A DNA stretch of 64,000 nt, from the NCBI RefSeq assembly GCF_013315695.1, contig NZ_CP054353.1. One strand, written 5' to 3'. The position numbers and the translations under genes were made by a program. Below, one piece after another: positions 10,094 to 58,779 of this stretch. Numbering within the stretch: position 1 is the first letter of the stretch; every line of letters starts with the position of its first letter. The notes beneath the pieces are model-generated. The model was not told the DNA's origin. It made no database searches and saw only the letters and a program-made list of their open reading frames with translations. Origin of the DNA: Escherichia coli (lineage in GTDB: Bacteria; Pseudomonadota; Gammaproteobacteria; Enterobacterales; Enterobacteriaceae).

Positions 10094-13000
10094 TAACAAC
10101 CTGCGCCTGCAGGTCATTCTTAATGCGGTTGACAAACTCACCCGCCCATTCCGTGCTGCACAGGCCAGTTCGAAAGAGCTGGCTGGCGCAATCAGAAACT
10201 CCCGTGACGCATTAAAGCAACTCAATCAGGCGGGTAACAGCCTGGAAAAATTTCGCAAGCTGCAGGCTGATAACAAGAAGTTAGGTGACAGGCTGAACTA
10301 TGCCAGACAGAAGGCTAATTTGCTTAGCTCTGAGCTGGAGGCGATGGAACAACCATCACAACGGCACCTTGTGGCTTTAGGTCGGCAAACGCTGGCAGTC
10401 CAACGCCTGGAAGAACAACAAAAATATTTGCAGAAGCAAACGGCGCTTGTGCGTGCAGAACTGTACCGGGCGGGAATTTCTGCGAAAGATGATGCGGGAG
10501 CAACTGCCCGTTTAGCCCGTGAAACATCACGTTATAACCAGGAATTGTCGAAACAGGAGGCGCGGCTGAAGCGACTGGGTGAAGCTCAGCGCAGGATGAA
10601 TGCGGCGCGTGCCAGTTATGCCCGTTCGCTGGAGGTGCGTGATCGTATTGCAGGAGCCGGAGCCACCACCACGGCTGCAGGGCTGGCAATGGGAACACCA
10701 GTGATGGCGGCAGTAAAAAGCTATACCAGCATGGAAGATGCCATGAAAGGTGTGGCAAAGCAGGTCAATGGTCTGCGTGACGATAATGGCAACCGCACTG
10801 CACGTTTTTATGAAATGCAGGATGCCATCAAGGCTGCCAGCGAACAGTTGCCGATGGAAAACGGTGCGGTGGACTTCGCTGCACTGGTTGAAGGTGGTGC
10901 GCGCATGAACGTCGCAAACCCTGACGACAGCTGGGAAGACCAGAAACGTGACCTGCTGGCCTTCGCCAGTACGGCAGCAAAGGCGGCAACAGCCTTTGAG
11001 CTGCCAGCGGATGAACTGTCAGAAAGTCTGGGGAAAATCGCCCAGCTCTACAAAATACCTACCCGCAATATTGAACAGCTCGGCGATGCGCTGAACTATC
11101 TGGATGATAACGCCATGTCGAAAGGGGCGGACATCATTGATGTCATGCAACGTCTGGGCGGTGTGGCTGATCGTCTGGATTATCGTAAAGCGGCGGCGCT
11201 GGGTTCCACCTTTCTGACACTGGGCGCTGCGCCAGAGGTTGCAGCCAGTGCAGCAAACGCGATGGTGCGTGAATTGTCCATTGCCACCATGCAAAGCAAG
11301 AGTTTCTTTGAAGGGATGAATCTGCTGAAACTCAATCCTGAAGTGATTGAAAAGCAGATGACGAAGGATGCGATGGGAACTATCCAGCGTGTGCTGGAGA
11401 AGGTGAACGCACTGCCGCAGGACAAGCGTCTGTCTGCCATGACCATGTTGTTTGGTAAAGAGTTTGGTGATGACGCGGCGAAACTGGCAAACAACCTTCC
11501 GGAACTGCAGCGCCAGCTAAAACTGACTGCGGGCAATGATGCGCTCGGTTCCATGCAGAAAGAATCCGACATCAACAAAGACTCACTTTCTGCGCAGTGG
11601 TTGCTGGTCAAAACCGGAGCGCAGAACACCTTCAGCAGCCTGGGCGAAACGCTGCGCCAGCCGCTGATGGATATTCTGTACACGGTAAAAAGCATCACGG
11701 GGGCGTTGCGCCGCTGGGTGGAAGCTAACCCGGAACTGACAGGCACACTGATGAAAGTAGCGGCTGTTGTGGCTGCGGTTACCGTAGGCCTCGGCACCTT
11801 AGCGGTGGCGCTGGCTGCAGTGCTGGGGCCGCTGGCAGTCATCCGTTTGGGATTCTCTGTGCTGGGTATCAAAACGTTACCTTCCGTTACGGCAGCAGTA
11901 ACACGAACCAGCAGCGCGTTGTCCTGGCTGGCTGGCGCTCCACTGGCACTGCTGCGACGCGGGCTTGCTTCATCGGGCAACGCAGCGGGTTTACTTACTG
12001 CGCCGTTGTCGTCTTTGCGCCGCATGGCATCACTGACGGGGAATGTCCTGAAAACTGTAGCAGGTGTGCCGGTTGCACTGTTGCGGTCTGGATTATCCGG
12101 TTTACGTGCTGTTGCTGTGATGTTTATGAATCCACTGGCAGCACTACGCGGTGGACTGGCTGCCGCAGGCGCGGTGCTGCGAGTACTGGCATCCGGTCCG
12201 CTGGCGATGCTGCGCGTTGCCCTGTATGCCGTATCTGGTCTGTTAGGTGCTCTGCTCAGTCCGATAGGTCTTGTGGTTACTGCACTGGCGGGCGTGGCGC
12301 TGGTTGTCTGGAAATACTGGCAACCCATCACCGCATTTCTCGCTGGTGTGGTGGAAGGATTCAACGCGGCGGCAGGTCCCATCAGTGCAGCATTCGAACC
12401 GCTTAAGCCTGTGTTTCAGTGGATTGGCGATAAAGTGCAGGCGTTGTGGGGCTGGTTTACTGATCTGCTGACGCCCGTTAAGTCGACCTCTGCCGAACTG
12501 CAGAGTGCAGCGGCAATGGGGCGGCGATTCGGAGAGGCACTGGCGGAAGGGCTGAATATGGTCATGCATCCGCTGGACTCCCTGAAATCCGGCGTTTCCT
12601 GGTTGCTGGAGAAACTTGGCATTGTCAGTAAAGAGGCCGCAAAGGCAAAACTGCCGGAAAGCATGACGCGTCAGCAACCTGCGACGGTGAATGCAGACGG
12701 TAAAGTGATGATGCCATCGGGTGGTTTTCCGTCATGGGGATATGGCTTTGCGGGGATGTATGACAGCGGCGGGTATATCCCGCGCGGGCAGTTTGGCATC
12801 GTCGGTGAAAACGGGCCGGAAATTGTTAACGGCCCGGCAAATGTGACCAGCCGGAGAAATACAGCTGCACTGGCTGCCGTTGTTGCCGGAATGATGGGCG
12901 TTGCTGCCGCGCCAGCAGAGCTTCCACCGTTGCACCCTTTGGCACTTCCCGCGAAAGGTGGAGAAGCAATTGTGAGTCGCGCAGCCACTGTGCCGCTCGT

Positions 13001-16641: not shown

Positions 16642-17004
16642 TGGTGGAGCTGGCGGGAGTTGAACCCGCGTCCGAAATTCCTACATCCTCGGTACTACAT
16701 GCTTAGTCAGTCTTTACATTCGCTTGCCAGCTGCGGACGGACACGCCACTAACAAACTAGCCTGATTAAGTTTTAACGCTTCAACCCCAGGCAGGGCTTC
16801 CACGCGATCTCTTTTGGGTTTGACCTCTCTTGATCCCCGTCCTAAGAGCGGAGGCTAGGGAGAGAGGGCTCTAAGCAGGTTATTAAGCTGCTAAAGCGTA
16901 GTTTTCGTCGTTTGCGACTATTTTTTGCGGCTTTTTACGAGGCCAACCGCCCCTCGGCATGCACCTTGGGTTTCGCAAATCCCGTCGAATCCAGAATCAG
17001 CCCC
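16642..17004 (-). ncRNA. ssrA: tmRNA (SsrA)
   Basis: Reverse complement reads GGGGCTGATTCTGGATTCGACGGG...GGACGCGGGTTCAACTCCCGCCAGCTCCACCA; tag-coding region present. Confidence 0.95.
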
Positions 17005-35465: not shown

Positions 35466-35498
35466 CAATAAAAAAGGCCCCCCGATTTGGGAGGCCTT
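35466..35498 (-). terminator. pheA attenuator terminator
   Basis: Minus strand ggcctcccaaatcggggggcc hairpin plus TTTTTTATT between pheL and pheA. Confidence 0.75.
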
Positions 35499-35544
35499 AT
35501 TGTTCGTCTTCGCATTCTGTTTCACACGACGAAACGCCTCCCAT

Positions 35545-35592
35545 TCAGGGGAAGGTAAAAAAGAATGCGAAGAAAAACGGTGTGTGTTTCAT
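35545..35592 (-). CDS. pheL: pheA leader peptide PheL
   Basis: MKHTPFFFAFFFTFP*; seven Phe codons; K-12 as recalled has Ile at position 4. Confidence 0.85.
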   Translation of the reverse strand: MKHTPFFFAFFFTFP

Positions 35593-35695
35593 GTTTGTTT
35601 CCTTAAGTGACTTTAGTACAGTACCCGTACTGTTTTCACGCTGTCAACAAAAAACGCGCCCGAAGGCGCGTTGGCGATACACTCAATATAAAGGA

Positions 35696-44806: not shown

Positions 44807-46108
44807 CTATTTAACGCGCGAGAAAAGTACCATCGATTCCAGATGTCCCGTGTGTGGGAACATATCCAGCATCGCCAGTCGCGCAATGGTATATCCTGCT
44901 TTTAATAACGCTTCGCTATCCCGAGCCAGCGTTGCAGGATTACAGGATACATAAACTATACGAATAGGTTCCAGTTTTATAATTTGCTGCATAACACCTG
45001 CGGCACCTGCTCGCGCCGGGTCCAGCAACACTTTATCGAAGCCGTTTTTCGCCCACGGCTGCTTTGTGACATCTTCTTCAAGATTTTCGTGATAAAACGT
45101 CACATTGTGTAAGCCATTAAGACGCGCATTCTGCTGGCCTTTTTCCACCAGCGCCGGAACACCTTCTACACCCACCACACTGGCAGCTTGTGTCGCCAAT
45201 GGCAGTGTAAAGTTGCCCATACCGCAGAACAGATCCAGTACGCGATCTTCAGGTTGTACATCCAGCCATTCCAACGCACGCGCTACCATTTTTTGGTTCA
45301 CACCCGCATTGACCTGAATAAAATCGCGCGGGCTAAAAGTTAAGCGCAACCCGTTTGAGTCATACCAGGGCATCTCACCAGAGACGGTTTCGAGTATCTC
45401 ACTATCGGGGGCGAGATACAGATCCAGTCCTTCAGAATGCGAAAAGCGTTCCAGTTTTTCGCGATCTGCCGAACTTAGCGGTGCGGTATGGCGCAAAATC
45501 ATCAGCGTGCCGCTGGTTGCCTGTACCAGTTCAACATGACCAAGATGGCGCATAGCTTGTAAGCTGCCCAGGCATGCCCTGACTTTGGGCAGCAATGCTT
45601 CAAGTTGGGGCACTAAAATGGGGCATTGTTTAACGTCGACAATGTCACTGGAGCCCGCTTTGCGAAACCCCATCTGAAGTTGCTGTGTTTTCGGTAAGTA
45701 GTTCAGACTTAAACGCGCGCGACGGCGATAGCCCCAGGGAACATCGGCGATCACTTCAGAGACTTCGTGTTTCATTAATCGGGCGAGTGCCGCACTTTTG
45801 CTTCGCTGCTGTAAATCCACACTGGCGTGTTGTTGCTGACAGCCGCCGCATACGCCAAAATGAGGGCAGCGTGGCGTTTCGCGTTCCGGGCTATCGCTTA
45901 ACCGGCGCACGACTTTAGCGCGGGCGTATTGTTTTTTATCTTCAGTAACAGTAACTTCCGCGTTTTCCTGTGGCAATAATCCAGGAATAAATAACGTTTT
46001 GCCGTTATGTCGCGCCACGCCCTGACCAAAAGAGTCGAGGTCATTGACTGAAACGGTTATGATCTGACGCGTCGTCGTGTGTCGTTTTGCAGAGTAGAAT
46101 TGCGCCAT
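44807..46108 (-). CDS. rlmD: 23S rRNA m5U1939 methyltransferase RlmD (RumA)
   Basis: 433 aa; TRAM domain, Cys cluster, SAM-binding motif. Confidence 0.9.
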
Positions 46109-46164
46109 TGGCGAGACTTTCTCAATTTAACAGTGTGACCTTAATTGTCCCATAACGGAACTCC

Positions 46165-48921
46165 ATGACCAACTACAGCCTGCGCGCACGCATGATGATT
46201 CTGATCCTGGCACCGACCGTCCTGATTGGTTTATTGCTGAGTATCTTTTTCGTCGTGCATCGCTATAACGACTTGCAGCGTCAACTGGAAGATGCCGGTG
46301 CCAGCATTATTGAGCCGCTTGCAGTTTCTACTGAATATGGCATGAGCCTGCAAAATCGCGAATCTATCGGTCAGTTAATAAGCGTACTGCATCGCCGCCA
46401 TTCCGATATTGTTCGCGCAATTTCGGTTTATGATGAAAATAACCGACTCTTTGTCACCTCCAATTTTCATCTTGATCCTTCATCAATGCAGCTCGGTAGC
46501 AACGTGCCGTTTCCTCGCCAGCTCACTGTCACACGTGACGGCGATATTATGATCCTCCGCACGCCGATTATTTCTGAGAGTTACTCCCCCGACGAATCGC
46601 CCAGTAGCGATGCCAAAAATAGTCAAAATATGTTGGGATATATTGCGCTTGAGCTGGATCTTAAATCGGTTCGCTTGCAGCAATATAAAGAGATCTTTAT
46701 TTCCAGCGTGATGATGCTGTTTTGTATCGGTATTGCGCTTATTTTTGGCTGGCGCTTAATGCGCGATGTAACCGGTCCGATTCGCAATATGGTGAATACC
46801 GTCGACCGCATCCGTCGCGGGCAACTCGACAGCCGGGTGGAAGGATTTATGCTCGGCGAGCTGGATATGCTGAAAAACGGTATCAACTCGATGGCAATGT
46901 CGCTGGCTGCTTATCACGAAGAGATGCAACACAATATCGACCAGGCGACGTCCGATCTGCGTGAAACGCTGGAGCAAATGGAGATTCAGAACGTTGAGTT
47001 GGATCTGGCGAAAAAGCGCGCCCAGGAAGCGGCGCGTATTAAATCCGAGTTTCTGGCAAATATGTCACACGAGCTGCGTACACCACTGAATGGTGTTATT
47101 GGCTTTACCCGCCTGACGCTGAAAACAGAATTAACACCAACGCAGCGCGATCACCTGAATACGATTGAACGTTCGGCAAATAATTTGCTGGCAATTATTA
47201 ATGATGTTCTCGACTTCTCGAAACTGGAAGCCGGTAAGCTGATTCTGGAAAGTATTCCATTCCCACTACGCAGCACGCTGGATGAAGTCGTTACCCTGCT
47301 GGCACATTCTTCTCACGATAAAGGGCTGGAACTGACGCTCAATATTAAAAGCGACGTGCCTGATAACGTGATCGGCGACCCACTACGATTACAGCAAATC
47401 ATCACTAACCTGGTGGGGAATGCAATTAAATTCACCGAGAATGGCAACATTGATATTCTGGTAGAAAAACGTGCGCTGAGTAATACCAAAGTGCAAATTG
47501 AAGTGCAGATTCGGGATACCGGCATTGGTATTCCTGAACGCGATCAATCGCGCTTATTCCAGGCCTTCAGACAGGCTGATGCCAGTATTTCCCGCCGTCA
47601 TGGTGGCACCGGGCTGGGGCTGGTGATTACACAAAAACTGGTTAATGAAATGGGCGGTGATATTTCGTTCCATAGCCAGCCGAATCGTGGTTCAACTTTC
47701 TGGTTCCACATTAATCTCGATCTGAACCCGAACATTATTATCGAAGGGCCATCCACCCAGTGCCTCGCCGGTAAGCGCCTGGCCTATGTCGAACCAAATT
47801 CCGCAGCAGCGCAATGCACGCTGGATATTTTAAGTGAAACGCCGCTGGAAGTGGTTTATAGCCCAACGTTCTCCGCGCTGCCTCCCGCGCATTACGACAT
47901 GATGTTATTAGGCATAGCGGTGACCTTCCGCGAGCCGCTAACAATGCAACATGAGCGATTAGCGAAAGCAGTATCGATGACCGATTTCCTGATGCTGGCA
48001 CTTCCTTGCCATGCACAAGTCAATGCTGAAAAACTTAAGCAAGATGGTATCGGCGCGTGTCTGCTGAAACCATTAACACCTACGCGCCTGTTGCCTGCCC
48101 TGACGGAATTTTGTCATCACAAACAAAACACGCTTTTGCCTGTAACCGATGAAAGTAAGCTGGCAATGACAGTCATGGCGGTTGATGACAACCCCGCTAA
48201 CCTGAAACTTATCGGCGCATTGCTGGAAGATATGGTGCAACATGTGGAACTTTGCGATAGCGGGCATCAGGCGGTTGAACGGGCGAAACAGATGCCGTTC
48301 GATTTGATCTTAATGGATATTCAAATGCCGGACATGGATGGCATTCGGGCCTGCGAACTCATCCACCAACTCCCGCATCAGCAACAAACGCCGGTTATCG
48401 CGGTAACGGCGCATGCAATGGCCGGGCAAAAAGAGAAGCTGCTTGGCGCAGGGATGAGCGATTATCTGGCGAAACCGATTGAAGAAGAGCGATTGCATAA
48501 TTTGTTGTTGCGCTACAAGCCTGGCAGCGGTATTTCCTCTCGCGTCGTGACGCCCGAAGTCAACGAAATTGTGGTGAACCCGAATGCGACCCTCGACTGG
48601 CAACTGGCACTACGCCAGGCAGCAGGAAAAACCGATTTAGCGCGCGATATGCTGCAAATGTTACTCGATTTCCTGCCTGAAGTTCGCAACAAAGTTGAGG
48701 AACAGCTGGTTGGAGAAAACCCGGAAGGCCTGGTTGATTTGATTCATAAACTGCATGGCAGTTGCGGCTATAGCGGTGTGCCGCGTATGAAGAATCTCTG
48801 CCAACTGATCGAACAACAGCTACGTAGCGGTACTAAAGAAGAAGATTTGGAGCCGGAGCTGCTGGAACTGTTAGACGAGATGGATAATGTAGCGCGCGAA
48901 GCCAGCAAAATTCTCGGGTAA
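46165..48921 (+). CDS. barA: Tripartite sensor histidine kinase BarA
   Basis: 918 aa; two TM helices, HAMP, HisKA (HELRTP), ATPase, receiver and HPt domains. Confidence 0.95.
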
Positions 48922-48983
48922 CGGACGTCTTGTCGAGTAGCAATCGGCTTTTTATGAAGCTGGTTTCAGACTGGTGACAAAGT

Positions 48984-49030
48984 GCCTGTGTTTATGCCGG
49001 ATGCGGCGTTAACGCCTTATCCTGCCTACA
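48984..49030. repeat. REP (repetitive extragenic palindromic) element
   Basis: gcctgtgtttatgccggatgcggcgttaacgccttatcc matches REP consensus GCCGGATGCGGCG. Confidence 0.6.
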
Positions 49031-49114
49031 AAACCAATTAAATTCAATGAATTAAAAAGTATGTTGGCCTGATACGTAGCGCAACAGGCAATTTTGCGTT
49101 TGGCATCAGTCTCA

Positions 49115-49148
49115 AACCGGCTCCTGACAGAGCCGGTTTTTGTTTTCA
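49115..49148. terminator. Bidirectional terminator between barA and gudD
   Basis: aaaccggctcctgacagagccggttttt hairpin with flanking T run. Confidence 0.6.
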
Positions 49149-49151
49149 GTC

Positions 49152-50492
49152 TTAACGCACCATGCACGGGCGCTTGTTATCAAACGTCCAGCCAGGAATC
49201 AGGTACTGCATTCCCATCGCATCGTCACGCGCGCCAAGCCCGTGTTTCTGATACAGCTCGTGGGCTTTCATCACCTGATCCATATCGATTTCTACGCCCA
49301 ATCCTGGTTTTTGCGGCACCTGTACCAGCCCGCCTTTGATCTCAAACGGTTCTTTGGTCAGACGCTGATTGCCTTCCTGCCAGATCCAGTGCGTATCAAT
49401 AGCAGTAATTTTACCCGGTGCAGCAGCGGCTACATGGGTAAACATCGCCAGGGAAATATCGAAGTGGTTGTTAGAGTGTGAACCCCAGGTCAGGCCAAAT
49501 TCATGGCACATTTGCGCCACACGTACCGAACCTTGCATCGTCCAGAAATGCGGATCCGCCAGCGGGATATCAACGGATTGCAGGGAGAGCGTATGGCCCA
49601 TCTGCCGCCAGTCGGTGGCGATCATATTGGTTGCGGTCGGCAGGCCTGTCGCGCGACGGAACTCTGCCATCACTTCACGCCCGGAGAAACCTTGCTCCGC
49701 ACCACACGGATCTTCTGCATAAGCCAGCGAACCTTTCAGGTATGTACCAATTTTAATCGCTTCGTTCAGCGACCAGGCACCGTTAGGATCGAGGGTAATA
49801 CGCGCCTGTGGGAAGCGTTGCGCCAGTGCCACAATAGATTCTGCTTCTTCTTCCCCGGCCAGTACACCGCCCTTCAGTTTGAAATCGTTGAAGCCATATT
49901 TTTCATATGCCGCTTCCGCCAGGCGCACCACCGCATCCGGCGTCATCGCTTCTTCGTGACGCAGGCGATACCAGTCACATTGATCATCCGGCTGGCTTTG
50001 ATACGGCAGCGGTGTGGCTTTGCGATTACCGACGAAGAACAGATAACCGAGCATTTCGACTTCGCTACGCTGTTGACCATCGCCCAGCAGCGATGCCACG
50101 TTAACCCCCAGATGCTGCCCCAGCAGATCCAGCATTGCCGCTTCTATCCCGGTAACCACATGAATAGTGGTCCGCAGGTCAAATGTCTGCAAACCGCGCC
50201 CGCCGGCATCACGATCGGCAAATGTATTACGCACCAGCGTCAGAACGTTTTTGTATTCACCCAGCGTTTTACCCACCACCAGCGGAATCGCATCTTCCAG
50301 CGTTTTACGGATTTTCTCGCCGCCGGGAATTTCCCCTACCCCAGTGTGACCAGAATTATCTTTGATAATCACAATATTACGCGTGAAGAACGGTGCGTGT
50401 GCACCACTCAGATTCATCAGCATACTGTCATGGCCCGCCACCGGGATGACCTGCATTTCAGTAACAACAGGCGTCGAAAATTGAGAACTCAT
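49152..50492 (-). CDS. gudD: Glucarate dehydratase GudD
   Basis: 446 aa from [23 protein letters not shown]; enolase superfamily. Confidence 0.9.
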
Positions 50493-50512
50493 CTTTATGT
50501 CCTTTTTCAAAA

Positions 50513-51853
50513 TCAATGACGGCCGAAAACGGGACGTTTACGGTCAAAGGTCCAGCCGGGGATCAGGTACTGCATCGGGCCCGCGTCGTTACGCGCACCG
50601 CCAGGCAGACGTTTATAGGCCTCATGCGCCTTTTGTACCTGCTCCCAGTCCAGTTCCACGCCCAGACCGGGCGCATCAGGAACGGCAATTTTTCCATTTT
50701 TAATCTCCAGCGGATTTTTGGTCAGGCGACAATCGCCCTCCTGCCAAATCCAGTGGGTATCGATAGCGGTAGGATTACCCGGTGCCGCCGCGCCCACATG
50801 GGTAAACATCGCCAGAGAGATATCAAAGTGGTTATTGGAATGGCAGCCCCAGGTCAGCCCCCAGTCGTCGCAAAGCTGCGCTACGCGGACTGCACCGGAA
50901 AGCGTCCAGAAGTGCGGGTCGGCAAGTGGAATATCTACCGCATTGAGCATCACCGCATGGCCCATTTCGCGCCAGTTGGTGGCGATCATATTAGTCGCGA
51001 CGGGCAAGCCGGTCGCCCGCCGAAATTCCGCCATCACTTCACCTCCGGAGAAACCCTGTTCTGCGCCACACGGATCTTCGGCATAGGTGAGAACATCATT
51101 CAGCCCTTTGCACAGAGAAATAGCTTCATCAAGCAGCCATGCTCCGTTGGGATCAACGGTAATCCGCGCATCCGGGAAGCGTTTCTTCAATGCACGAACA
51201 GTGTCGATTTCTTGCTCGCCAGGTAACACTCCGCCCTTAAGTTTGAAATCTTTAAAGCCATAGCGATCCTGTGAAGCTTCCGCCAGACGCACAACGGCTT
51301 CGCTGTTCATCGCTTTCTGATGCCGCAATTGATACCACTCATGGTTGCCCGGCGTATTTTCCAGATAAGGAAGATCGGTTTTGGTCCGATCACCGATATA
51401 AAACAGATAACCGAGAACGGTAATAGCATCACGTTGCTTGCCTGGCCCTAACAGTTCGCAGACCGGAACATTCAGCGCCTTACCTAGCAGGTCAAGCAAG
51501 GCGGCTTCCAGCGCCGCCACGGCATTAACGCGCAATTCAAAAGTCCAGGCACCTTTGCCGAAGGTATCAAAATCGGCTGCCTGATTACCTTTATGCACCT
51601 GCTGAACCACTTTATTCAGGCGCGCAACTTCCTGGCCCAGCACCATCGGAATAGCCTCGACCAGTGTCTGATAAATCACCTCTCCGCCCGGCGCTTCACC
51701 AATGCCGGTATGCCCGGCGTTATCGGTGAGTACCACAATATTGCGGGTGAAATATGCGTTATGTGCACCACCAATATTAAGCAACATGCTATCGTGCCCG
51801 GCGACCGGAATGACTTTCATATCAGTAATAACAGGACTGGATTGTGTCGTCAT
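50513..51853 (-). CDS. gudX: Glucarate dehydratase-related protein GudX
   Basis: 446 aa paralog of GudD. Confidence 0.9.
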
Positions 51854-51854
51854 C

Positions 51855-53207
51855 TTATTGCCCCGCGACAGGTTTCAGCTCGATACGCTTGATATCGCCC
51901 ACCAGCACCAGGTAGCTCAGTACCGCGATTAAGGCATGAACACCAACATAAATCAGCGCCCCATTAAAGGAGCCAGTCGTGCCAACGATATAACCAATTG
52001 CGATTGGCGTGACGATGCCAGAAATGTTACCAAACATGTTGAACAGGCCACCGGAAAGACCGCTGATCTCTTTTGGCGCAGTATCAGCCATTACAGCCCA
52101 ACCCAGCGCCCCGATCCCCTTACCGAAGAAGGCCAGCGCCATAAAGCCGATGATCATCCACTCAACGTTGACGTAGTTGCAGAACACCATCACCATCGAC
52201 AGCAACATGCCCATTACGATCGGTGTTTTACGCGCAATGTTCAGCGATCCCGTGCGGCGCATCAGCCAGTCGGAAATAATCCCACCCAGCACACCGCCGA
52301 TAAAACCGCAAACCGCCGGAACGGAAGCCACAAAGCCCGCTTTCAGAATCGACATCCCACGCGCCTGCACCAGATAAACCGGAAACCAGGTAATGAAAAA
52401 GTAAGTCAGGGCGTTGATACAGTACTGACCGATATAAACGCCGATCATCATCCGTGACCCGAGCAGCTGTTTGATCTGCCCCCACTTCACGCTGAACGGC
52501 ACTTTAACTTTGGTGTTTTGCTGATCCATATTGATCAGCGCGCCACCCGCGGCGATGTACTCCAGCTCTTTCTGATTTACACCCGGATGTTGATTTGGCT
52601 CGTGGATGACTTTCAACCAGATAAAGCTGATGACAATGCCCAGACCGCCCATAAAGAAAAAGACGTGTGACCAGCCCACTTCATGCGTCAGCCAGCCCAT
52701 AATCGGCGCGAAGATCACCGTTGCGAAGTATTGAGCGGAGTTAAAAATCGACACCGCCGTTCCCCTTTCCTGCGCCGGAAACCAGGCCGCAACAATGCGA
52801 CTGTTGCCGGGGAAAGAGGGCGCTTCAGCAAGCCCGACCAGGAAGCGCAGCGTAAACAGGGCAACGATAATGCCGAATCCACTAAAGATATCGACGAAGC
52901 CTTGCAGCAAGGTAAACATCGACCAGATAAAGATCGACCAGAAGTAGACGCGTTTTGAACCAAAACGATCCAGCAACCAACCACCAGGGATCTGCCCGAT
53001 AACATAAGCCCATGAGAAAGCAGAGAACACATAGCCCATTCCCACAGGATCAAGGCCGATATCTTTGGCCATTTCCGAACCGGCGATAGAGAGCGTAGCG
53101 CGGTCGCCGTAGTTGAAGGATGTGACGATAAACAACATCACCACTATCCAGTAACGAGCATTCGTGCGTTTTTCCACACTGCTCGCAGCCTGACTTAAAG
53201 AACTCAT
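51855..53207 (-). CDS. gudP: Glucarate/galactarate MFS transporter GudP
   Basis: 450 aa, 12-TM MFS. Confidence 0.9.
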
Positions 53208-53641
53208 TGTTGCACTCCTGAAAATTCGCGTTAGCCACGCTCACTCTGGACTGCGACATCGCCAGGAAATCAGAGGTGACGTAGGGTGTTTTTTGCCGTT
53301 TTTATAGGTCGTTCGCCGAATGCGGCGCGTGTTTATATCTGGCAATAGCAGTATAAAAAGCGCGCCATAGCGGCTCACCGTGCAACAACACAACATTAAT
53401 GCGTTCAATGAGGCCCGATTTTGGCATTAGCCCTGGACGGTGGAATCCACTTCACGGAAATGAAAACAAGAACAAGAAAGGAAGGGTTAAAACGAAGAAA
53501 TAAAGAAGAGTATGAAATGGATCGCTTGACTCCAGGCAAACGCCAGTAAAAATCCGCACTATGAAGCAGTTTTTACTGGCATTTGCCTGAAAAGATTCGA
53601 TTCAGCACTGCTAAAACGGCATTTACCGCTTGCTGAACATA

Positions 53642-54091
53642 TCAGGACAACAGCGTGCCCCAATGTTCGACCCACGGATTTGATTCCGTTTCCGGTTCCG
53701 GGTTCTCACTGGCGTCAATCAACAGCATTTCTCCCACTCGCTGAGCGCTCTGTTCCTGCAACAAGGCATCGAACTGTTTGCCGCCATTGCAGAAATTCAC
53801 ATAACTACTGTCGCCGAGCGCAATCACGCCATAACGCAGATTCGGCTGGAAGCCCAGGGTATCTTTAATTCCCTGAAAGAGCGGCACAATGCAATCAGGA
53901 AGGTCACCCTGCCCGGTCGTGGACGTAACCACCAGAACATACTTATCCTGATAGGGCAGCCAGTCGCTTAATTCAGGATCTTCAAATACCGTTGCTTTGT
54001 GGCCCTGCGCGGTCAGAATTGCTTCCGCTTCTTCCGCCACTAACAGCGAATTTCCGTACATAGTGCCGACAAAAATACCAATTTCCGCCAT
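53642..54091 (-). CDS. yqcA: Flavodoxin YqcA
   Basis: 149 aa [15 protein letters not shown]. Confidence 0.85.
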
Positions 54092-54108
54092 ACCGTTTTC
54101 TCCCTGGA

Positions 54109-54891
54109 TTAGGAACTTATCTCTCCATCCTGACCCGATGGCGCACTGAACTCAACCCTTTCATTTTCAGGAAGCAGACCCCGCCAGCCAAATTGTGATA
54201 ACGCCTGCATCCAGGTGTCGTCCAGGCCCGCGTGAATAGTCAGCGGCTCGCCAGTAAAAGGATGCGTCAATGACAACTGACTGGCATGCAGCATTAACCG
54301 CTGAAGGCCAAAATGTTCAGCACCGCTGCGATTCTGGCGTAAATCACCATGTTTGCTGTCGCCAATAATCGGGTGGCGCAAATGGGCAAGATGGCGACGG
54401 AGCTGGTGCTTACGTCCGGTTTTCGGCTCCAGTTCCACCAGGCCGTAGCGCGTGGTCGGGTAACGTCCGGTCGCTACCGGCATTTCTACGGTCGCCAGAC
54501 CGCGATAATGCGTCACTGCTGGCTGCGGGCCTTTATCTTCGCGGGCAAATTTATCAGCGATTTTGTCCAGTTCTTCCACCAGTGGATAATCCAGCACCGC
54601 TTCTTCCATCAACCAGCCGCGCACAATCGCATGATAACGTTTCTGGATTTGGTGCTGTTCAAACTGTTGTGCCAGCAGCCGTCCGGCCTCGCTGGATAAT
54701 CCCATCAACAACACACCAGAAGTGGGTCGGTCCAGACGATGAGCAGTAAACACATGCTGGCCTATCTGGTCACGCACGGTTTGCATGACCACTACTTTCT
54801 CGTCGCGATCCAGCCAGCTGCGGTGAACCAGCCAGCCGGAGGGTTTATTTACCGCAACCAGCCATTCATCCTGATAGAGTATTTCCAGCAT
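54109..54891 (-). CDS. truC: tRNA pseudouridine65 synthase TruC
   Basis: 260 aa; RluA-family motif HRLDRPTSG. Confidence 0.9.
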
Positions 54892-55220
54892 TAGCTCGCA
54901 TCATCCGCAAAAAGAGCATCCAGTTTTTCCAGCTCAGCCAGAATAAGCGCGCGTTGCGGGTGGTCCGTCGCCAGCGCCATTTCATAATAGGGAGCAACGG
55001 CAAAAGCGCCCGGTAACGGCTGGTTGTTTTCTAACAAATCGTGCATTCGCGGGATCAGCACCCACTGCAACCACTCCAGTGGTTCCATGGTGTCCATAAA
55101 GAACGGTTGGGTACTATTAAATTGATGCGGCTGGGGTTCATCGTTTCGCCAGTGCTGATGTTCACGCAGTAACGCTTCAAGCGCCTGCAACTGGAAACGA
55201 ACGCGGTCATGAGTGGTCAT
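54891..55220 (-). CDS. yqcC: DUF446 protein YqcC
   Basis: 109 aa; overlaps truC start. Confidence 0.8.
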   Translation of the reverse strand: MTTHDRVRFQLQALEALLREHQHWRNDEPQPHQFNSTQPFFMDTMEPLEWLQWVLIPRMHDLLENNQPLPGAFAVAPYYEMALATDHPQRALILAELEKLDALFADDAS

Positions 55221-55263
55221 AAAGCAACCTCAATAAGAAAAACTGCCGCGAAGGATAGCAGGA

Positions 55264-55631
55264 ATAAAAAAAGGGAGCACTGTATTCACAGTGCTCCCGG
55301 TTCGTTTCGCAGCATTCCAGCTACTTTTGTTGCTCCCTGCTCATCCTTGACAACTTTTCCTCTGGCCTTGCGGCCAATCGTTCATCCTGAACTATTGCTT
55401 CCTGCTCACACCACCCCGATGTGATACTTCATCCTGAAGTGTCCCTGGCCTTCCTGACCCACCGAATCATCCTGACCGGTTCTCATTCTCCATCCTGGAG
55501 GTGTCCTTTAACGCGTCCTGCGTCATCCTCTTCGCTTCATCCAGAAGCCTTTCCCTGAAACACCATCCTGGTGTGTCCTTCAGAAGTGTCATCATCCTGA
55601 TGTTCACTTCGTTGTCTGACTCCCTGTCGAC
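55264..55631 (-). ncRNA. csrB: CsrB small RNA (CsrA-sequestering)
   Basis: About 368 nt; minus strand starts GTCGACAGGGAGTCAGACAACGAAGTGAACATCAGGATGATGACAC and carries many CAGGA(U/A)G repeats; terminator hairpin gggagcactgtgaatacagtgctccc plus T run. Confidence 0.9.
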
Positions 55632-55804
55632 GAAGATAGAATCGTCTTTTTCGCGAAGTCTTACAAGGCGCTTACAGACAATGCCTTAAGGAAAATTTCA
55701 TATGAAAGTTAAGAATTGACAAGCAATATATTGATTTTAAATGAAAATAACGATTCTTATCTTTTTAAGTATTCGCTTATTTCCTGGCGATCTCCTACAG
55801 AGTC

Positions 55805-55822
55805 TGTAAGAGATCTCTCACA
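55805..55822. promoter_or_regulatory. UvrY response-regulator binding inverted repeat upstream of csrB
   Basis: Palindrome tgtaagagatctctcaca about 175 bp upstream of csrB 5' end. Confidence 0.5.
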
Positions 55823-55841
55823 ACAAGATGGGGTATTTGGA

Positions 55842-56387
55842 TTACAGAAGAGGCTTAAGTTGATTAAGGAATTCCGCAAGATTTGAGGCTAAATGCGTCC
55901 GTTTGCGTGTTCCCAGCGTCTCTTTGCACACTTCACCGGAGAGATTACACACCGAGATGACCTCTAACTCTTCTTCCAGCGTCGCGATAAATAGCGTGGG
56001 CGGCAGTTTTAGCCTTTTCTGAGTCACCAGATGACCAATCAGATTTTCCTGCACCCGACGGAAGTCGTCTTCACTCCAGGTTTGCAGCAATGTCAGTTTG
56101 ATATCGCCAAACTGCGCGTGCATATCCCCGGCAAACTGAGTCGTATAAAAGGTATGAATTGTGGGTTGTATCACAATATCAAAAGCGCGTTCAACCGCGT
56201 TTACATTTTGTTCCCCGGTAAACGGCTGGGGTTGCCAGTATACGGCGTCTTCGGTGGTTGAAATAATGCACGGTGAAGGAACGCCGTACAGTTCCTCACT
56301 CAACGGCCAGCTTTTATGCTCTTCATGCCACGCATCGCAGTAGCGTGCAGTAAAATCTTTCAGGGCTTGTGCGGTCAAATCGTCCAC
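55842..56387 (-). CDS. syd: SecY-interacting protein Syd
   Basis: 181 aa [22 protein letters not shown]. Confidence 0.9.
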
Positions 56388-56454
56388 TAATTTCTCTCTT
56401 CACTTAAACCAGATACACTTGTCGTTTAGTTTATCTGGTTTATGACGGTGAAAC

Positions 56455-57303
56455 ATGTCTTCTTATGCAAACCATCAGGCACTTGCGGGCCTGACTCTTG
56501 GAAAATCAACCGATTACCGGGATACCTATGACGCCAGCCTACTGCAAGGCGTTCCGCGTAGTCTGAATCGCGATCCGCTGGGTCTGAAAGCGGATAACCT
56601 GCCTTTTCACGGTACGGATATCTGGACGCTATATGAACTTTCCTGGCTGAATGCGAAAGGTTTGCCGCAGGTCGCCGTCGGTCATGTTGAACTTGATTAC
56701 ACCAGCGCAAATCTGATTGAGTCGAAGAGTTTTAAGCTCTATCTCAACAGTTTTAACCAGACGCGTTTTAATAACTGGGATGAGGTGCGCCAGACGCTGG
56801 AGCGCGACTTAAGCACTTGCGCTCAGGGTAAGGTTAGCGTGGCGTTATATCGTCTTGATGAACTGGAAGGCCAACCGATAGGTCATTTCAATGGCACTTG
56901 CATTGATGACCAGGATATCACTATCGATAACTATGAATTCACTACTGACTATCTGGAGAATGCCACCAGTGGCGAAAAAGTAGTAGAAGAGACGCTCGTC
57001 AGCCACCTGCTGAAATCAAACTGCCTGATCACCCATCAACCAGATTGGGGATCGATCCAAATTCAGTATCGTGGACGCCAAATTGACAGAGAAAAACTGC
57101 TGCGTTACCTGGTTTCTTTCCGTCATCACAACGAGTTCCACGAACAGTGCGTGGAACGCATCTTTAATGACCTGTTACGCTTCTGCCAGCCAGAGAAATT
57201 GAGCGTTTACGCACGTTATACCCGTCGTGGCGGTCTGGACATTAACCCGTGGCGCAGTAATAGCGATTTTGTCCCATCGACCACAAGACTGGTTCGGCAA
57301 TAA
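56455..57303 (+). CDS. queF: NADPH-dependent 7-cyano-7-deazaguanine reductase QueF
   Basis: 282 aa, two-domain QueF. Confidence 0.9.
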
Positions 57304-57414
57304 ATTTTTTCTCAATTTTGCGTGCTGGATTCACGCAGAAGGTTGTGAAAGGTCATCAGGCAGGGCTATTGTAATCAAAGGGAATGACGATATTCGTCCC
57401 ATAAGGAGTTTTTC

Positions 57415-58779
57415 TTGATTACACATATTAGCCCGCTTGGCTCCATGGATATGTTGTCGCAGCTGGAAGTGGATATGCTTAAACGCACCGCCAGCAGCGA
57501 CCTCTATCAACTGTTTCGCAACTGTTCACTTGCCGTACTGAACTCCGGTAGTTTGACCGATAACAGCAAAGAATTGCTGTCTCGTTTTGAAAATTTCGAT
57601 ATTAACGTCCTGCGCCGTGAACGCGGCGTAAAGCTGGAACTGATTAATCCCCCGGAAGAGGCTTTTGTCGATGGGCGAATTATTCGCGCTTTGCAGGCCA
57701 ACTTGTTCGCGGTTCTGCGCGACATTCTCTTCGTTTACGGGCAAATCCATAACACCGTTCGTTTTCCCAACCTGAATCTCGACAACTCCGTCCACATCAC
57801 TAACCTGGTCTTTTCCATCTTGCGTAACGCTCGCGCGCTGCATGTTGGTGAAGCGCCAAATATGGTGGTCTGCTGGGGCGGGCACTCAATTAACGAAAAC
57901 GAGTATTTGTATGCCCGTCGCGTCGGGAATCAGCTGGGCCTGCGTGAGCTGAATATCTGCACCGGCTGTGGTCCGGGAGCGATGGAAGCGCCGATGAAAG
58001 GTGCTGCGGTCGGACACGCACAGCAGCGTTACAAAGACAGTCGTTTTATTGGTATGACAGAGCCGTCGATTATCGCCGCTGAACCGCCTAACCCGCTGGT
58101 CAACGAATTGATCATCATGCCGGATATCGAAAAACGTCTGGAAGCGTTTGTCCGTATCGCTCACGGTATCATTATCTTCCCTGGCGGTGTGGGTACGGCA
58201 GAAGAGTTGCTGTATTTGCTGGGAATTTTAATGAACCCGGCCAACAAAGATCAGGTTTTACCATTGATCCTCACCGGCCCGAAAGAGAGCGCCGACTACT
58301 TCCGCGTACTGGACGAGTTTGTCGTGCATACGCTGGGTGAAAACGCGCGCCGCCATTACCGCATCATCATTGATGACGCCGCAGAAGTCGCTCGTCAGAT
58401 GAAAAAATCGATGCCGCTGGTGAAAGAAAATCGCCGCGACACAGGCGATGCCTACAGCTTTAACTGGTCAATGCGCATTGCGCCAGATTTGCAAATGCCG
58501 TTTGAGCCGTCTCACGAGAATATGGCTAATCTGAAGCTTTACCCGGATCAACCCGTTGAAGTGCTGGCTGCCGACCTGCGCCGTGCGTTCTCCGGTATTG
58601 TGGCGGGTAACGTAAAAGAAGTCGGTATTCGCGCCATTGAAGAGTTTGGTCCTTATAAAATCAACGGCGATAAAGAGATTATGCGTCGTATGGATGACCT
58701 GCTACAGGGTTTTGTTGCCCAGCATCGTATGAAGTTGCCAGGCTCAGCCTACATCCCTTGCTACGAAATCTGCACGTAA
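57415..58779 (+). CDS. ppnN: Nucleotide 5'-monophosphate nucleosidase PpnN (YgdH), LOG family
   Basis: 454 aa; LOG-type motifs. Confidence 0.85.

Follow-up and report, generated by a model that had tools for sequence, protein, structure and literature searches.

In Escherichia coli K-12, the RNA CsrB binds and sequesters CsrA (review PMC7652899). The inverted repeat TGTGAGAGATCTCTTACA, centred at -183/-182 of the K-12 csrB promoter, is protected by phosphorylated UvrY (UvrY-P) in DNase I footprints, and its in vivo crosslinking to UvrY depends on barA (Zere et al. 2015, PMC4682653). The same study mentioned a third half-site as 'partially conserved' TGTAGGAGA. It also detected ChIP-exo crosslinking of UvrY from -56 to +25, where there was no in vitro footprint, and placed a putative IHF site between the UvrY crosslinking regions. 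An IHF requirement and a DNA-bending model have been published for csrB, with CsrB down about 10-fold in K-12 ihf mutants, and a NAR 2025 paper described activation of the csrB promoter by ArcA/CytR. For the csrB/SirA-BarA system of Salmonella enterica, the same 18-mer has been reported, centred at -182/-181 (PMC4682653), together with the same extra half-site, a putative IHF site and IHF-dependent expression; our comparison with Salmonella is drawn entirely from that paper. UvrY-P likewise activates the E. coli csrC promoter, which lies outside the DNA analysed here, and does so from an inverted repeat further upstream (PMC4682653), but this repeat, TGTGAGACATTGCCGATA, is much less symmetric than that of csrB, and csrC is IHF-independent. 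Zere et al. (PMC4682653) also cited the narG promoter, with NarL at about -190 and IHF at about -125, as having the same 'repositioning' layout, in which a FixJ/NarL-family regulator bound far upstream would be brought to the promoter by IHF bending; narG differs from csrB in regulator, signal and target, and the likeness can be read only as an analogy of mechanism.

The window, that is, the whole stretch of 64,000 nucleotides that was analysed, is a piece of E. coli chromosome that matches E. coli chromosomes at 100% and keeps the K-12 gene order rlmD-barA-gudDXP-yqcA-truC-yqcC-csrB-syd-queF. Its 621-bp yqcC-syd interval aligned gap-free and at 99% identity with that of K-12 MG1655 (csrB, b4408), where the gene order is the same; 8 SNPs separate the two, one of them 3 nt upstream of the repeat. 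Almost certainly, then, we are dealing with the canonical barA ... csrB segment of the E. coli chromosome. The first-pass annotation had placed barA, csrB and the repeat within 10 kb and had called them known biology and a positive control for motif reading. The whole span is 9658 bp, all three identifications were correct, and the locus is indeed ordinary, well studied and already known: a positive control and no discovery. For each element (Table 1), this analysis established what it is, where it lies, that it is intact and how it is conserved, while binding by UvrY-P, the dependence on barA and on IHF, and the sequestration of CsrA come from the literature and not from this strain. Knowledge of the BarA-UvrY-Csr circuit is unchanged by these results, whose value is one of calibration: the GGA repeats, the activator site and the sensor kinase gene were enough for a sponge RNA to be recognised correctly without tools.

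Table 1. Features of the barA-csrB locus in window coordinates; negative and positive offsets are relative to the csrB start
Feature	Position	Strand	Basis
barA, tripartite hybrid sensor histidine kinase, 918 aa	46165..48921	+	RefSeq annotation, Pfam, K-12 identity
csrB, predicted CsrA-sequestering sponge RNA gene, 369 nt	55263..55631	-	Rfam RF00018 and mapping of K-12 b4408
csrB intrinsic terminator, 11-bp GC-rich stem (55273-55298) followed by a U7 tract	55263..55298	-	terminator scan
Putative csrB core promoter, -35 TTGTAA (55661-55666), 17-bp spacer, -10 GATTCT (55638-55643)	55638..55666	-	conservation
Two TGTAAG hexamers, -45 to -40 and -34 to -29	55660..55676	-	pattern positions
Putative IHF site AATCAATATATTG, consensus WATCAANNNNTTR, -105 to -93	55724..55736	-	pattern match
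Third UvrY-type half-site TGTAGGAGATCGC, -168 to -156, 5 bp promoter-proximal to the repeat	55787..55799	-	published, conserved
UvrY (SirA/GacA-type) binding inverted repeat TGTGAGAGATCTCTTACA on the csrB strand	55805..55822	-	identity with published K-12 site

The annotation of barA was taken from a 100%-identical RefSeq record. The Pfam domains sCache_4, HAMP, HisKA, HATPase_c, Response_reg and Hpt were all found above cutoff, and the phospho-relay residues H302, D718 and H861 were present, so that sensor through Hpt domains and the relay residues are united in one chain, as in BarA/GacS tripartite kinases. With 33 nucleotide differences in the gene and 0 amino-acid differences, the protein is residue for residue the BarA of K-12, and the naming of this gene as the BarA sensor kinase was well founded. 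The distance of 'about 7 kb' given between barA and csrB also agrees with our measurements, which run from the barA stop codon 6341 bp to the csrB 3' end, 6710 bp to the csrB start and 6884 bp to the repeat. A tblastn search of the window with K-12 UvrY matched only the receiver domain of BarA itself (28.6% identity), showing that the window does not contain uvrY. The K-12 gene is located at 1.995 Mb, about 0.92 Mb away; a position of uvrY outside the window is the normal arrangement and no argument against the identity of barA. The claim that the BarA/UvrY system activates csrB holds as a description of the known circuit, but not as a direct action of BarA, for which UvrY, encoded elsewhere, is an obligatory intermediate.

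The csrB gene was identified by a match to Rfam RF00018 (CsrB) at 55263-55622 on the minus strand, which covered model positions 1-356 of 356 with 382.9 bits (gathering score 71; E = 2e-111). In the alignment to the K-12 yqcC-syd intergenic region, b4408 mapped without gaps to 55263-55631. The earlier placement at 55264-55631 on the minus strand is confirmed, its 3' end being 1 nt off at the U-tract (55263), which is immaterial. The terminator scan returned GGGAGCACTGTGAATACAGTGCTCCC followed by TTTTTTTATT, and this hairpin also closes the Rfam CsrB model. There are 2 SNPs in csrB relative to K-12: in the terminator stem a G-U pair has become A-U, and C62A turns CAGGAC into AAGGAC, the window version matching the Rfam consensus. 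The CsrB predicted for the window would differ by these 2 nt from the CsrA-sequestering CsrB of K-12.

The dense array of CAGGA(U/A)G CsrA-binding repeats that had been noticed in csrB is real. The gene holds 22 GGA in its 369 nt, far above background: 2546 stretches of equal length, taken from both strands, averaged 4.75 (sd 2.63), and csrB itself was the maximum. Eight heptamers are exact CAGGA[T/A]G, and 12 are within one mismatch of CAGGATG while retaining the GGA. Counting GGA motifs in predicted stem-loops, a check suggested at the outset, placed 9 (MFE) or 12 (centroid) of the 22 in hairpin loops, with most of the others unpaired, and the folding z-score was -4.3. We also considered that 55221-55841 codes for small proteins instead of a non-coding RNA, as six mechanical ORFs of 40-71 aa overlap this interval. 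This is extremely improbable given the full-length covariance-model match to CsrB, the curated annotation of the K-12 counterpart as an ncRNA, the lack of any annotated CDS there in the RefSeq match or the K-12 record, and a repeat structure and terminator typical of CsrB RNA; the protein-coding reading was rejected.

No new RNA family appeared in a permissive Rfam scan of 45500-57500. The scan gave a sub-threshold REP/naRNA4-like match at 48990-49026 and also picked up the antisense image of the csrB terminator.

Upstream of csrB, the 18-mer TGTAAGAGATCTCTCACA at 55805-55822 occurs once in the window, while 0 occurrences are expected from shuffles. Read on the csrB strand, it is identical letter for letter and in position to the published K-12 UvrY-P site, so the UvrY-binding repeat was rightly recognised as such. 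It spans -191 to -174 relative to the csrB start, and 'about 175 bp upstream' is correct for its proximal edge (-174), its centre being at -183/-182. In the proposed comparison, the K-12 csrB promoter proved to have the same 18-mer, third half-site and start site as the window, and the repeat is centred at -183/-182 in both. However, the description of the 18-mer as a perfect palindrome was wrong: 8/9 pairs are symmetric, with one A/C mismatch, and the reverse complement differs at 2 positions, which makes the repeat nearly perfect.

The symmetry itself invites another explanation, namely that the 18-mer has no connection with UvrY and either became palindromic by chance or serves another protein. 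Zero-spacer 18-bp palindromes with at least 8/9 pairs number 14 in the window (none perfect), as against 6.6±2.7 in shuffles, and a second near-palindrome lies in the same csrB promoter at -79 to -62. Near-palindromes of equal quality are common, and symmetry alone is not beyond chance; what counts as evidence is which sequence this is, where it lies and how well it is conserved. The identical sequence at the same distance carries the published UvrY-P DNase I footprint and ChIP-exo signal, the exact 18-mer is unique, it matches 11/12 specified positions of TGTAAGN6CTTACA and is the only window site within 1 mismatch of it, and the box adjoins GGA-rich RNAs in many genera, all of which leave hardly any chance that the 18-mer has nothing to do with UvrY. 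The check also marks the limits of sequence-only reading: 'perfect' was wrong, symmetry by itself is not significant in 64 kb, and a short distance between barA and csrB does not mean direct action.

Absence of the repeat from other E. coli csrB upstream regions had been named as the result that would speak against its role. Of 5426 complete E. coli genomes, 5425 contain the csrB upstream region, and 5422 of these show at most 2 mismatches in a 40-mer that encloses the repeat. An exact 28-nt word within this 40-mer is common to 5093 genomes; it would cover most of the repeat if each genome carries the common variant 3 nt upstream. Conservation within E. coli was judged from identity bands, this exact-word logic and a sample of the most divergent matches, with no per-genome count of variants. 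The repeat was intact in 7/8 aligned haplotypes, the exception being A1.S1.18 (NZ_CP146595.1), which reads TGTGAGATAT-TCTTACA. The objection therefore fails.

Beyond E. coli, the same TGTAAGN6CTTACA consensus, an upstream activating sequence, forms the GacA/VarA boxes that precede the multi-GGA sponge RNAs rsmX/Y/Z and Vibrio csrB/C/D, RNAs that differ from CsrB in size and family. The box TGTRAGAGATCTCTYACA turned up 125 times, in 120 loci from Enterobacterales, Vibrionaceae, Shewanella, Halomonadaceae and Alcanivorax, and the version with exactly AGAGATCTCT at its centre adjoins GGA-rich regions in Vibrio, Photobacterium, Shewanella, Halomonadaceae and Alcanivorax. At 99 of the 125 sites, the 420 nt on one flank contained 15 or more GGA, compared with a mean of 3.3 on the other. 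Rfam confirmed CsrB in 11/16 sampled loci; some loci have only about 10-16 GGA and gave no Rfam match at the gathering score. Measured from the first position of the CsrB model, the box in Enterobacterales is 166-195 bp away. The invariance of the repeat across species arises partly by construction, the repeat having been the search key. CsrB-like, GGA-rich RNAs thus accompany the box in a range of Gammaproteobacteria.

Since the third half-site lay outside the search key, its conservation is independent, as is that of the IHF core and of the -35 TTG: TGTRRG was present in 31/31 Enterobacterales csrB upstream regions, with a spacing of 5 bp in 29 and 4 bp in 2. Nearer to the gene, the IHF-consensus match sits between the two UvrY crosslinking regions, that is, between the activator site and the promoter. 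Among the 31 Enterobacterales, conservation reaches at least 90% in the core columns C98/A99 and T105/T106 of this match, although the strict consensus is matched by only 4 of them and a relaxed one by 17. From these patterns we infer that the match at 55724-55736 is probably the IHF site, the exact position being putative. A strict sigma-70 scan of 55150-55900 returned no promoter, and because of this the promoter hexamers in Table 1 were assigned from conservation; in the 31 Enterobacterales the TTG of the -35 element is invariant and CTTGTAAGAC and GATTCTAT form conserved blocks. The empty strict scan would fit a weak, activator-dependent promoter. The pair of TGTAAG hexamers falls inside the promoter-proximal UvrY crosslinking region.

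The differences from K-12 include a cluster of four SNPs at -99 to -87, in and beside the IHF-consensus match. Across -105 to -87, the window carries AATCAATATATTG, K-12 AATCAAAATGTTG, 4/6 other aligned haplotypes AAACAACATGTTG and a BL21 derivative AAACAACATGTTA, the last two both breaking the WATCAA core. Because loss of IHF lowers CsrB about 10-fold, E. coli lineages might carry differing csrB promoter alleles at this hot spot that set lineage-specific CsrB levels; we consider this unlikely, though if true, the alleles could also fix the set-point of the whole Csr network.

Taken with the published K-12 work, these elements suggest how the locus may operate. BarA, as a membrane tripartite kinase, would autophosphorylate and pass phosphate from H302 through D718 and H861 to the response regulator UvrY. 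Phospho-UvrY would then bind the 18-bp repeat, nearly perfect in its symmetry, whose centre lies 182.5 bp upstream of csrB, and would probably use the adjacent third half-site too. Bending of the DNA by IHF at about -100 could bring UvrY-P to the weak sigma-70 promoter (TTGTAA-N17-GATTCT), leading to csrB transcription, and the 369-nt CsrB, displaying its 22 GGA, many of them in short hairpin loops, would sequester CsrA dimers from their mRNA targets.

It could also be supposed that the closeness of barA and csrB is functional, reflecting selection for co-inheritance of sensor and target or for a place in one chromosomal domain. Within the short flanks available, which allowed linkage to be judged in Enterobacteriaceae, four other loci carry barA on the side of csrB where it lies here, those of E. 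albertii, Enterobacter sp. Ag1, E. asburiae and Cedecea neteri; in E. albertii, where gudPXD is absent, it is only about 1.7 kb from csrB. A 47%-identical BarA-like C-terminal match also appeared in Pantoea stewartii. However, the signal passes via the distant UvrY, and the second target, csrC, is also encoded elsewhere. In addition, the intervening content varies with the presence or absence of gudPXD, as would be expected if the synteny is passive, conservation extends over all of syd-csrB-yqcC-truC-yqcA, a block with housekeeping genes that have nothing to do with Csr, and Vibrio and Photobacterium loci show only weak matches of 28-40% identity, typical of paralogous kinases. A functional closeness is thus very unlikely, and inherited gene order is the best explanation for barA and csrB lying 6-7 kb apart.

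Rfam matched its CsrB family (RF00018) to the minus strand of the window at 55263-55622 over the whole model, scoring 382.9 bits where the gathering score is 71. The 621-bp yqcC-syd interval aligned with that of K-12 without gaps at 99% identity, and the K-12 coordinates therefore carry over to give csrB a start at 55631; the first-pass annotation, which had placed the gene at 55264-55631, was correct to within 1 nt. The dense CsrA-binding repeats that it described are also present, as csrB contains 22 GGA motifs compared with 4.75±2.63 in windows of the same size on both strands of the 64 kb, where the maximum is csrB itself, and carries 8 exact CAGGA[T/A]G heptamers and 12 heptamers within one mismatch of CAGGATG. 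RNAfold gave -119.9 kcal/mol (z = -4.3), and none of the shuffled sequences folded equally well. In the predicted structures, 9 (MFE) or 12 (centroid) GGA motifs were in hairpin loops, and the rest were mostly in unpaired linkers; at the 3' end, a stem of 11 bp precedes a U7 tract. Counting GGA motifs in predicted stem-loops was the check that the first-pass annotation had suggested, and these counts and the predicted folding are as expected for a CsrA sponge, as CsrB has been reviewed to be (PMC7652899). Two SNPs separate this csrB from that of K-12: C62A gives the Rfam consensus base, and the other changes a stem G-U pair to A-U. Six short mechanical ORFs overlap the interval, and a coding reading found no support.

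The 18-mer upstream of csrB, TGTAAGAGATCTCTCACA, occurred once in the window, with 0 occurrences expected from shuffles. It had been described as a perfect palindrome, a word that has to be dropped: the repeat differs from its own reverse complement at 2 positions and thus has 8 of 9 pairs. Zero-spacer 18-bp repeats with at least 8/9 pairs numbered 14 in the window, none of them perfect, compared with 6.6±2.7 in shuffles; the symmetry by itself is unremarkable, and it is the specific sequence that counts. The repeat matches TGTAAGN6CTTACA with no more than one mismatch, which no other site in the window does, and Zere et al. (2015; PMC4682653) reported the identical "nearly perfect" repeat at the identical position. 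In their study, it was the strongest ChIP-exo target of UvrY, with barA-dependent crosslinking, and was protected by phosphorylated UvrY in DNase I footprints (PMC4682653). This agreement of sequence and position with the published UvrY-P footprint site argues for the UvrY-binding identity that the 18-mer had been given.

Features of the window (negative positions are counted from the csrB start, 55631, on the csrB strand)
Feature	Window	Relative to csrB start	Strand	Remark
barA	46165-48921		+	918-aa ORF
csrB	55263-55631		-	RF00018 match and K-12 coordinate transfer
UvrY repeat	55805-55822	-191 to -174		reads TGTGAGAGATCTCTTACA on csrB strand; centre -183/-182
Third half-site, TGTAGGAGA(TCGC)	55787-55799	-168 to -156	-	5 bp downstream of repeat
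Putative IHF site, AATCAATATATTG		-105 to -93	-	fits the IHF consensus WATCAANNNNTTR
Near-palindrome, AACTTTCATATGAAATTT	55693-55710	-79 to -62		8/9 pairs
TGTAAG hexamers (two)		-45 to -40, -34 to -29	-	within promoter-proximal crosslinking region
gudP-yqcA intergenic ORF	53421-53549		+	42 aa
naRNA4 match	48990-49026		-	sub-threshold
tmRNA (ssrA)	16642-17004		-	Rfam, 295.8 bits
Phe leader	35468-35593		-	Rfam, 132.2 bits

BarA possesses sCache_4, HAMP, HisKA, HATPase_c, receiver and Hpt domains and has no amino-acid difference from the K-12 protein (33 nucleotide differences), with H302, D718 and H861 retained. The barA stop codon lies 6341 bp from the 3' end of csrB and 6884 bp from the repeat, and the total span from barA to the repeat is 9658 bp, so that all three do lie within 10 kb. 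A tblastn search with K-12 UvrY matched nothing in the window but the receiver domain of BarA itself, and uvrY in K-12 is ~0.92 Mb away. That BarA activates csrB is correct for the BarA/UvrY system but not as direct action, since the effect of BarA on csrB is exclusively through UvrY.

The 12-kb stretch at 45500-57500 matched E. coli chromosomes, with 100% identity to NZ_OZ547117.1, and 5414 of 5426 complete E. coli genomes contained 80% or more of it. The annotated order is rlmD, barA (+), gudD, gudX, gudP, yqcA, truC, yqcC (all -), syd (-) and queF (+), which is also the order in K-12, whose record adds the ncRNA csrB (b4408) between yqcC and syd. The PGAP annotation of NZ_OZ547117.1 (L001) is missing the csrB feature at 10722-11342 of the retrieved locus (window 55221-55841), an omission that leaves a major regulatory RNA unannotated. 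PGAP places a 42-aa "hypothetical protein" (WP_001296328.1) between gudP and yqcA that is not in the curated K-12 record. The barA-gudD match to naRNA4, a REP-derived family in Rfam (31.7 bits vs 59.5, E = 0.017), is probably a REP element directly 3' of barA.

In E. albertii, Cedecea and two Enterobacter species, barA again lay in the neighbourhood of csrB, and Pantoea stewartii gave a BarA-like C-terminal match (47% identity). In E. albertii (L010, 2516-7354), gudPXD is absent, barA is directly beside yqcA and csrB is only ~1.7 kb from barA, and the barA-yqcA gap holds ~2.4 kb of other DNA in Enterobacter sp. Ag1 and in Cedecea. This varying content fits inherited synteny as the source of the closeness; no evidence was found that the proximity is functional, and that reading seems very improbable.

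Of 5426 E. coli genomes, 5425 carried the 210-bp csrB upstream region, in single copy. A 40-mer surrounding the repeat was identical in 142 genomes and showed 1-2 mismatches in 5280 and 3-4 in 3, and 5093 genomes had a 28-nt exact word in common with it. Sampled matches of 97.5% identity suggest that these 5093 genomes carry a common variant located 3 nt upstream of the repeat; in that case, no fewer than 17 of the 18 repeat positions fall within the word. When the weakest match, K-12 and five genomes from the 2-mismatch class were aligned with the window, mismatches were confined to the flanks of the repeat, except in strain A1.S1.18. This urine isolate (L008, NZ_CP146595.1) reads TGTGAGATAT-TCTTACA at ~312-329 of the locus, with one substitution and a 1-nt deletion; no other sampled E. 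coli had a damaged repeat, and the isolate may either contain an assembly error or be a natural mutant of the csrB promoter. Absence of the palindrome from other E. coli, which the first-pass annotation had named as refuting it, was thus not observed, and the interpretation as a UvrY site stands.

Beyond E. coli, a scan for TGTRAGAGATCTCTYACA with one genome per species returned at least 120 loci and at least 125 sites; because the scan looked for the repeat itself, every site necessarily has it unchanged, and conservation of the flanks is independent of this. Genera among the matches listed were Citrobacter, Enterobacter, Pantoea, Dickeya, Serratia, Yersinia, Vibrio, Photobacterium, Shewanella, Vreelandella/Halomonas, Alcanivorax and Kangiella. 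Within 420 nt, 99 of the 125 listed sites had a flank with 15 or more GGA and 112 a flank with 10 or more, and the opposite flank averaged 3.3. Rfam called CsrB in 11 of 16 sampled box loci, and the distance from the box to the first CsrB model position, 183 bp in the window, was 166-195 bp across nine Enterobacterales loci and ~255-265 bp across two from Vibrionaceae. The syd-box-csrB-yqcC-truC-yqcA block was kept throughout Enterobacterales and could still be recognised in Photobacterium (L021) and, in a looser form, in Shewanella (L018).

Five Photobacterium loci (L021, L068, L079, L033, L109) contain two tandem CsrB-like GGA-rich genes ~750-800 bp apart; each gene has its own 18-bp box in L068 and L079, and Rfam called 2 CsrB copies in L021. 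The box adjoins 25-27 GGA in Shewanella (L018, L025, L075, L086) and ~10-16 in Halomonadaceae and Alcanivorax loci (L011, L054 and others), and no Rfam family reached its gathering score in L018, L011 or L054. In Kangiella (L032, L042, L046), the box is present and GGA enrichment is slight.

Zere et al. mentioned an additional half-site beside the repeat as "partially conserved" (PMC4682653). We observed TGTRRG at this third half-site in all 31 Enterobacterales upstream regions, with a spacing of 5 bp in 29 and 4 bp in the others, which is stronger conservation than that description implies. In most species the half-site (TGTGAGAGATCGC) is better than the one in E. coli. The IHF-consensus match falls in the area to which Zere et al. 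assign their putative IHF site; they found CsrB ~10-fold lower upon IHF loss and proposed that IHF bending delivers UvrY-P to the csrB promoter; their promoter-proximal UvrY crosslinking region gave no in vitro footprint (PMC4682653). According to a 2025 study, ArcA and CytR activate this promoter. A strict sigma-70 scan of the csrB region returned no promoter; from conservation, we infer the hexamers TTGTAA (-35 to -30) and GATTCT (-12 to -7) with 17 bp between them. Across the 31 regions, the TTG of the -35 hexamer and the core columns of the IHF match showed little or no variation.

Apart from the word "perfect", the first-pass annotation was borne out in observation and interpretation; as it stated, the barA-UvrY-csrB picture was all known already, the biology of the window here is fully known, and only minor loose ends are left: the damaged repeat of A1.S1.18, a SNP cluster and a second near-palindrome. 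The cluster, 13 bp at -99 to -87, holds 4 of the 8 differences from K-12 in the yqcC-syd interval and overlaps the IHF match. Among 8 E. coli haplotypes, the allele within -105 to -87 (55718-55736) is AATCAATATATTG in the window and eco-241, AATCAAAATGTTG in K-12, AAACAACATGTTG in four others and AAACAACATGTTA in a BL21 derivative, the WATCAA core being broken in the last two alleles. The 18-bp near-palindrome at -79 to -62, to which we know of no assigned regulator, is invariant across the 8 haplotypes, and its TTTC-N4-GAAA core is retained in several Enterobacteriaceae.
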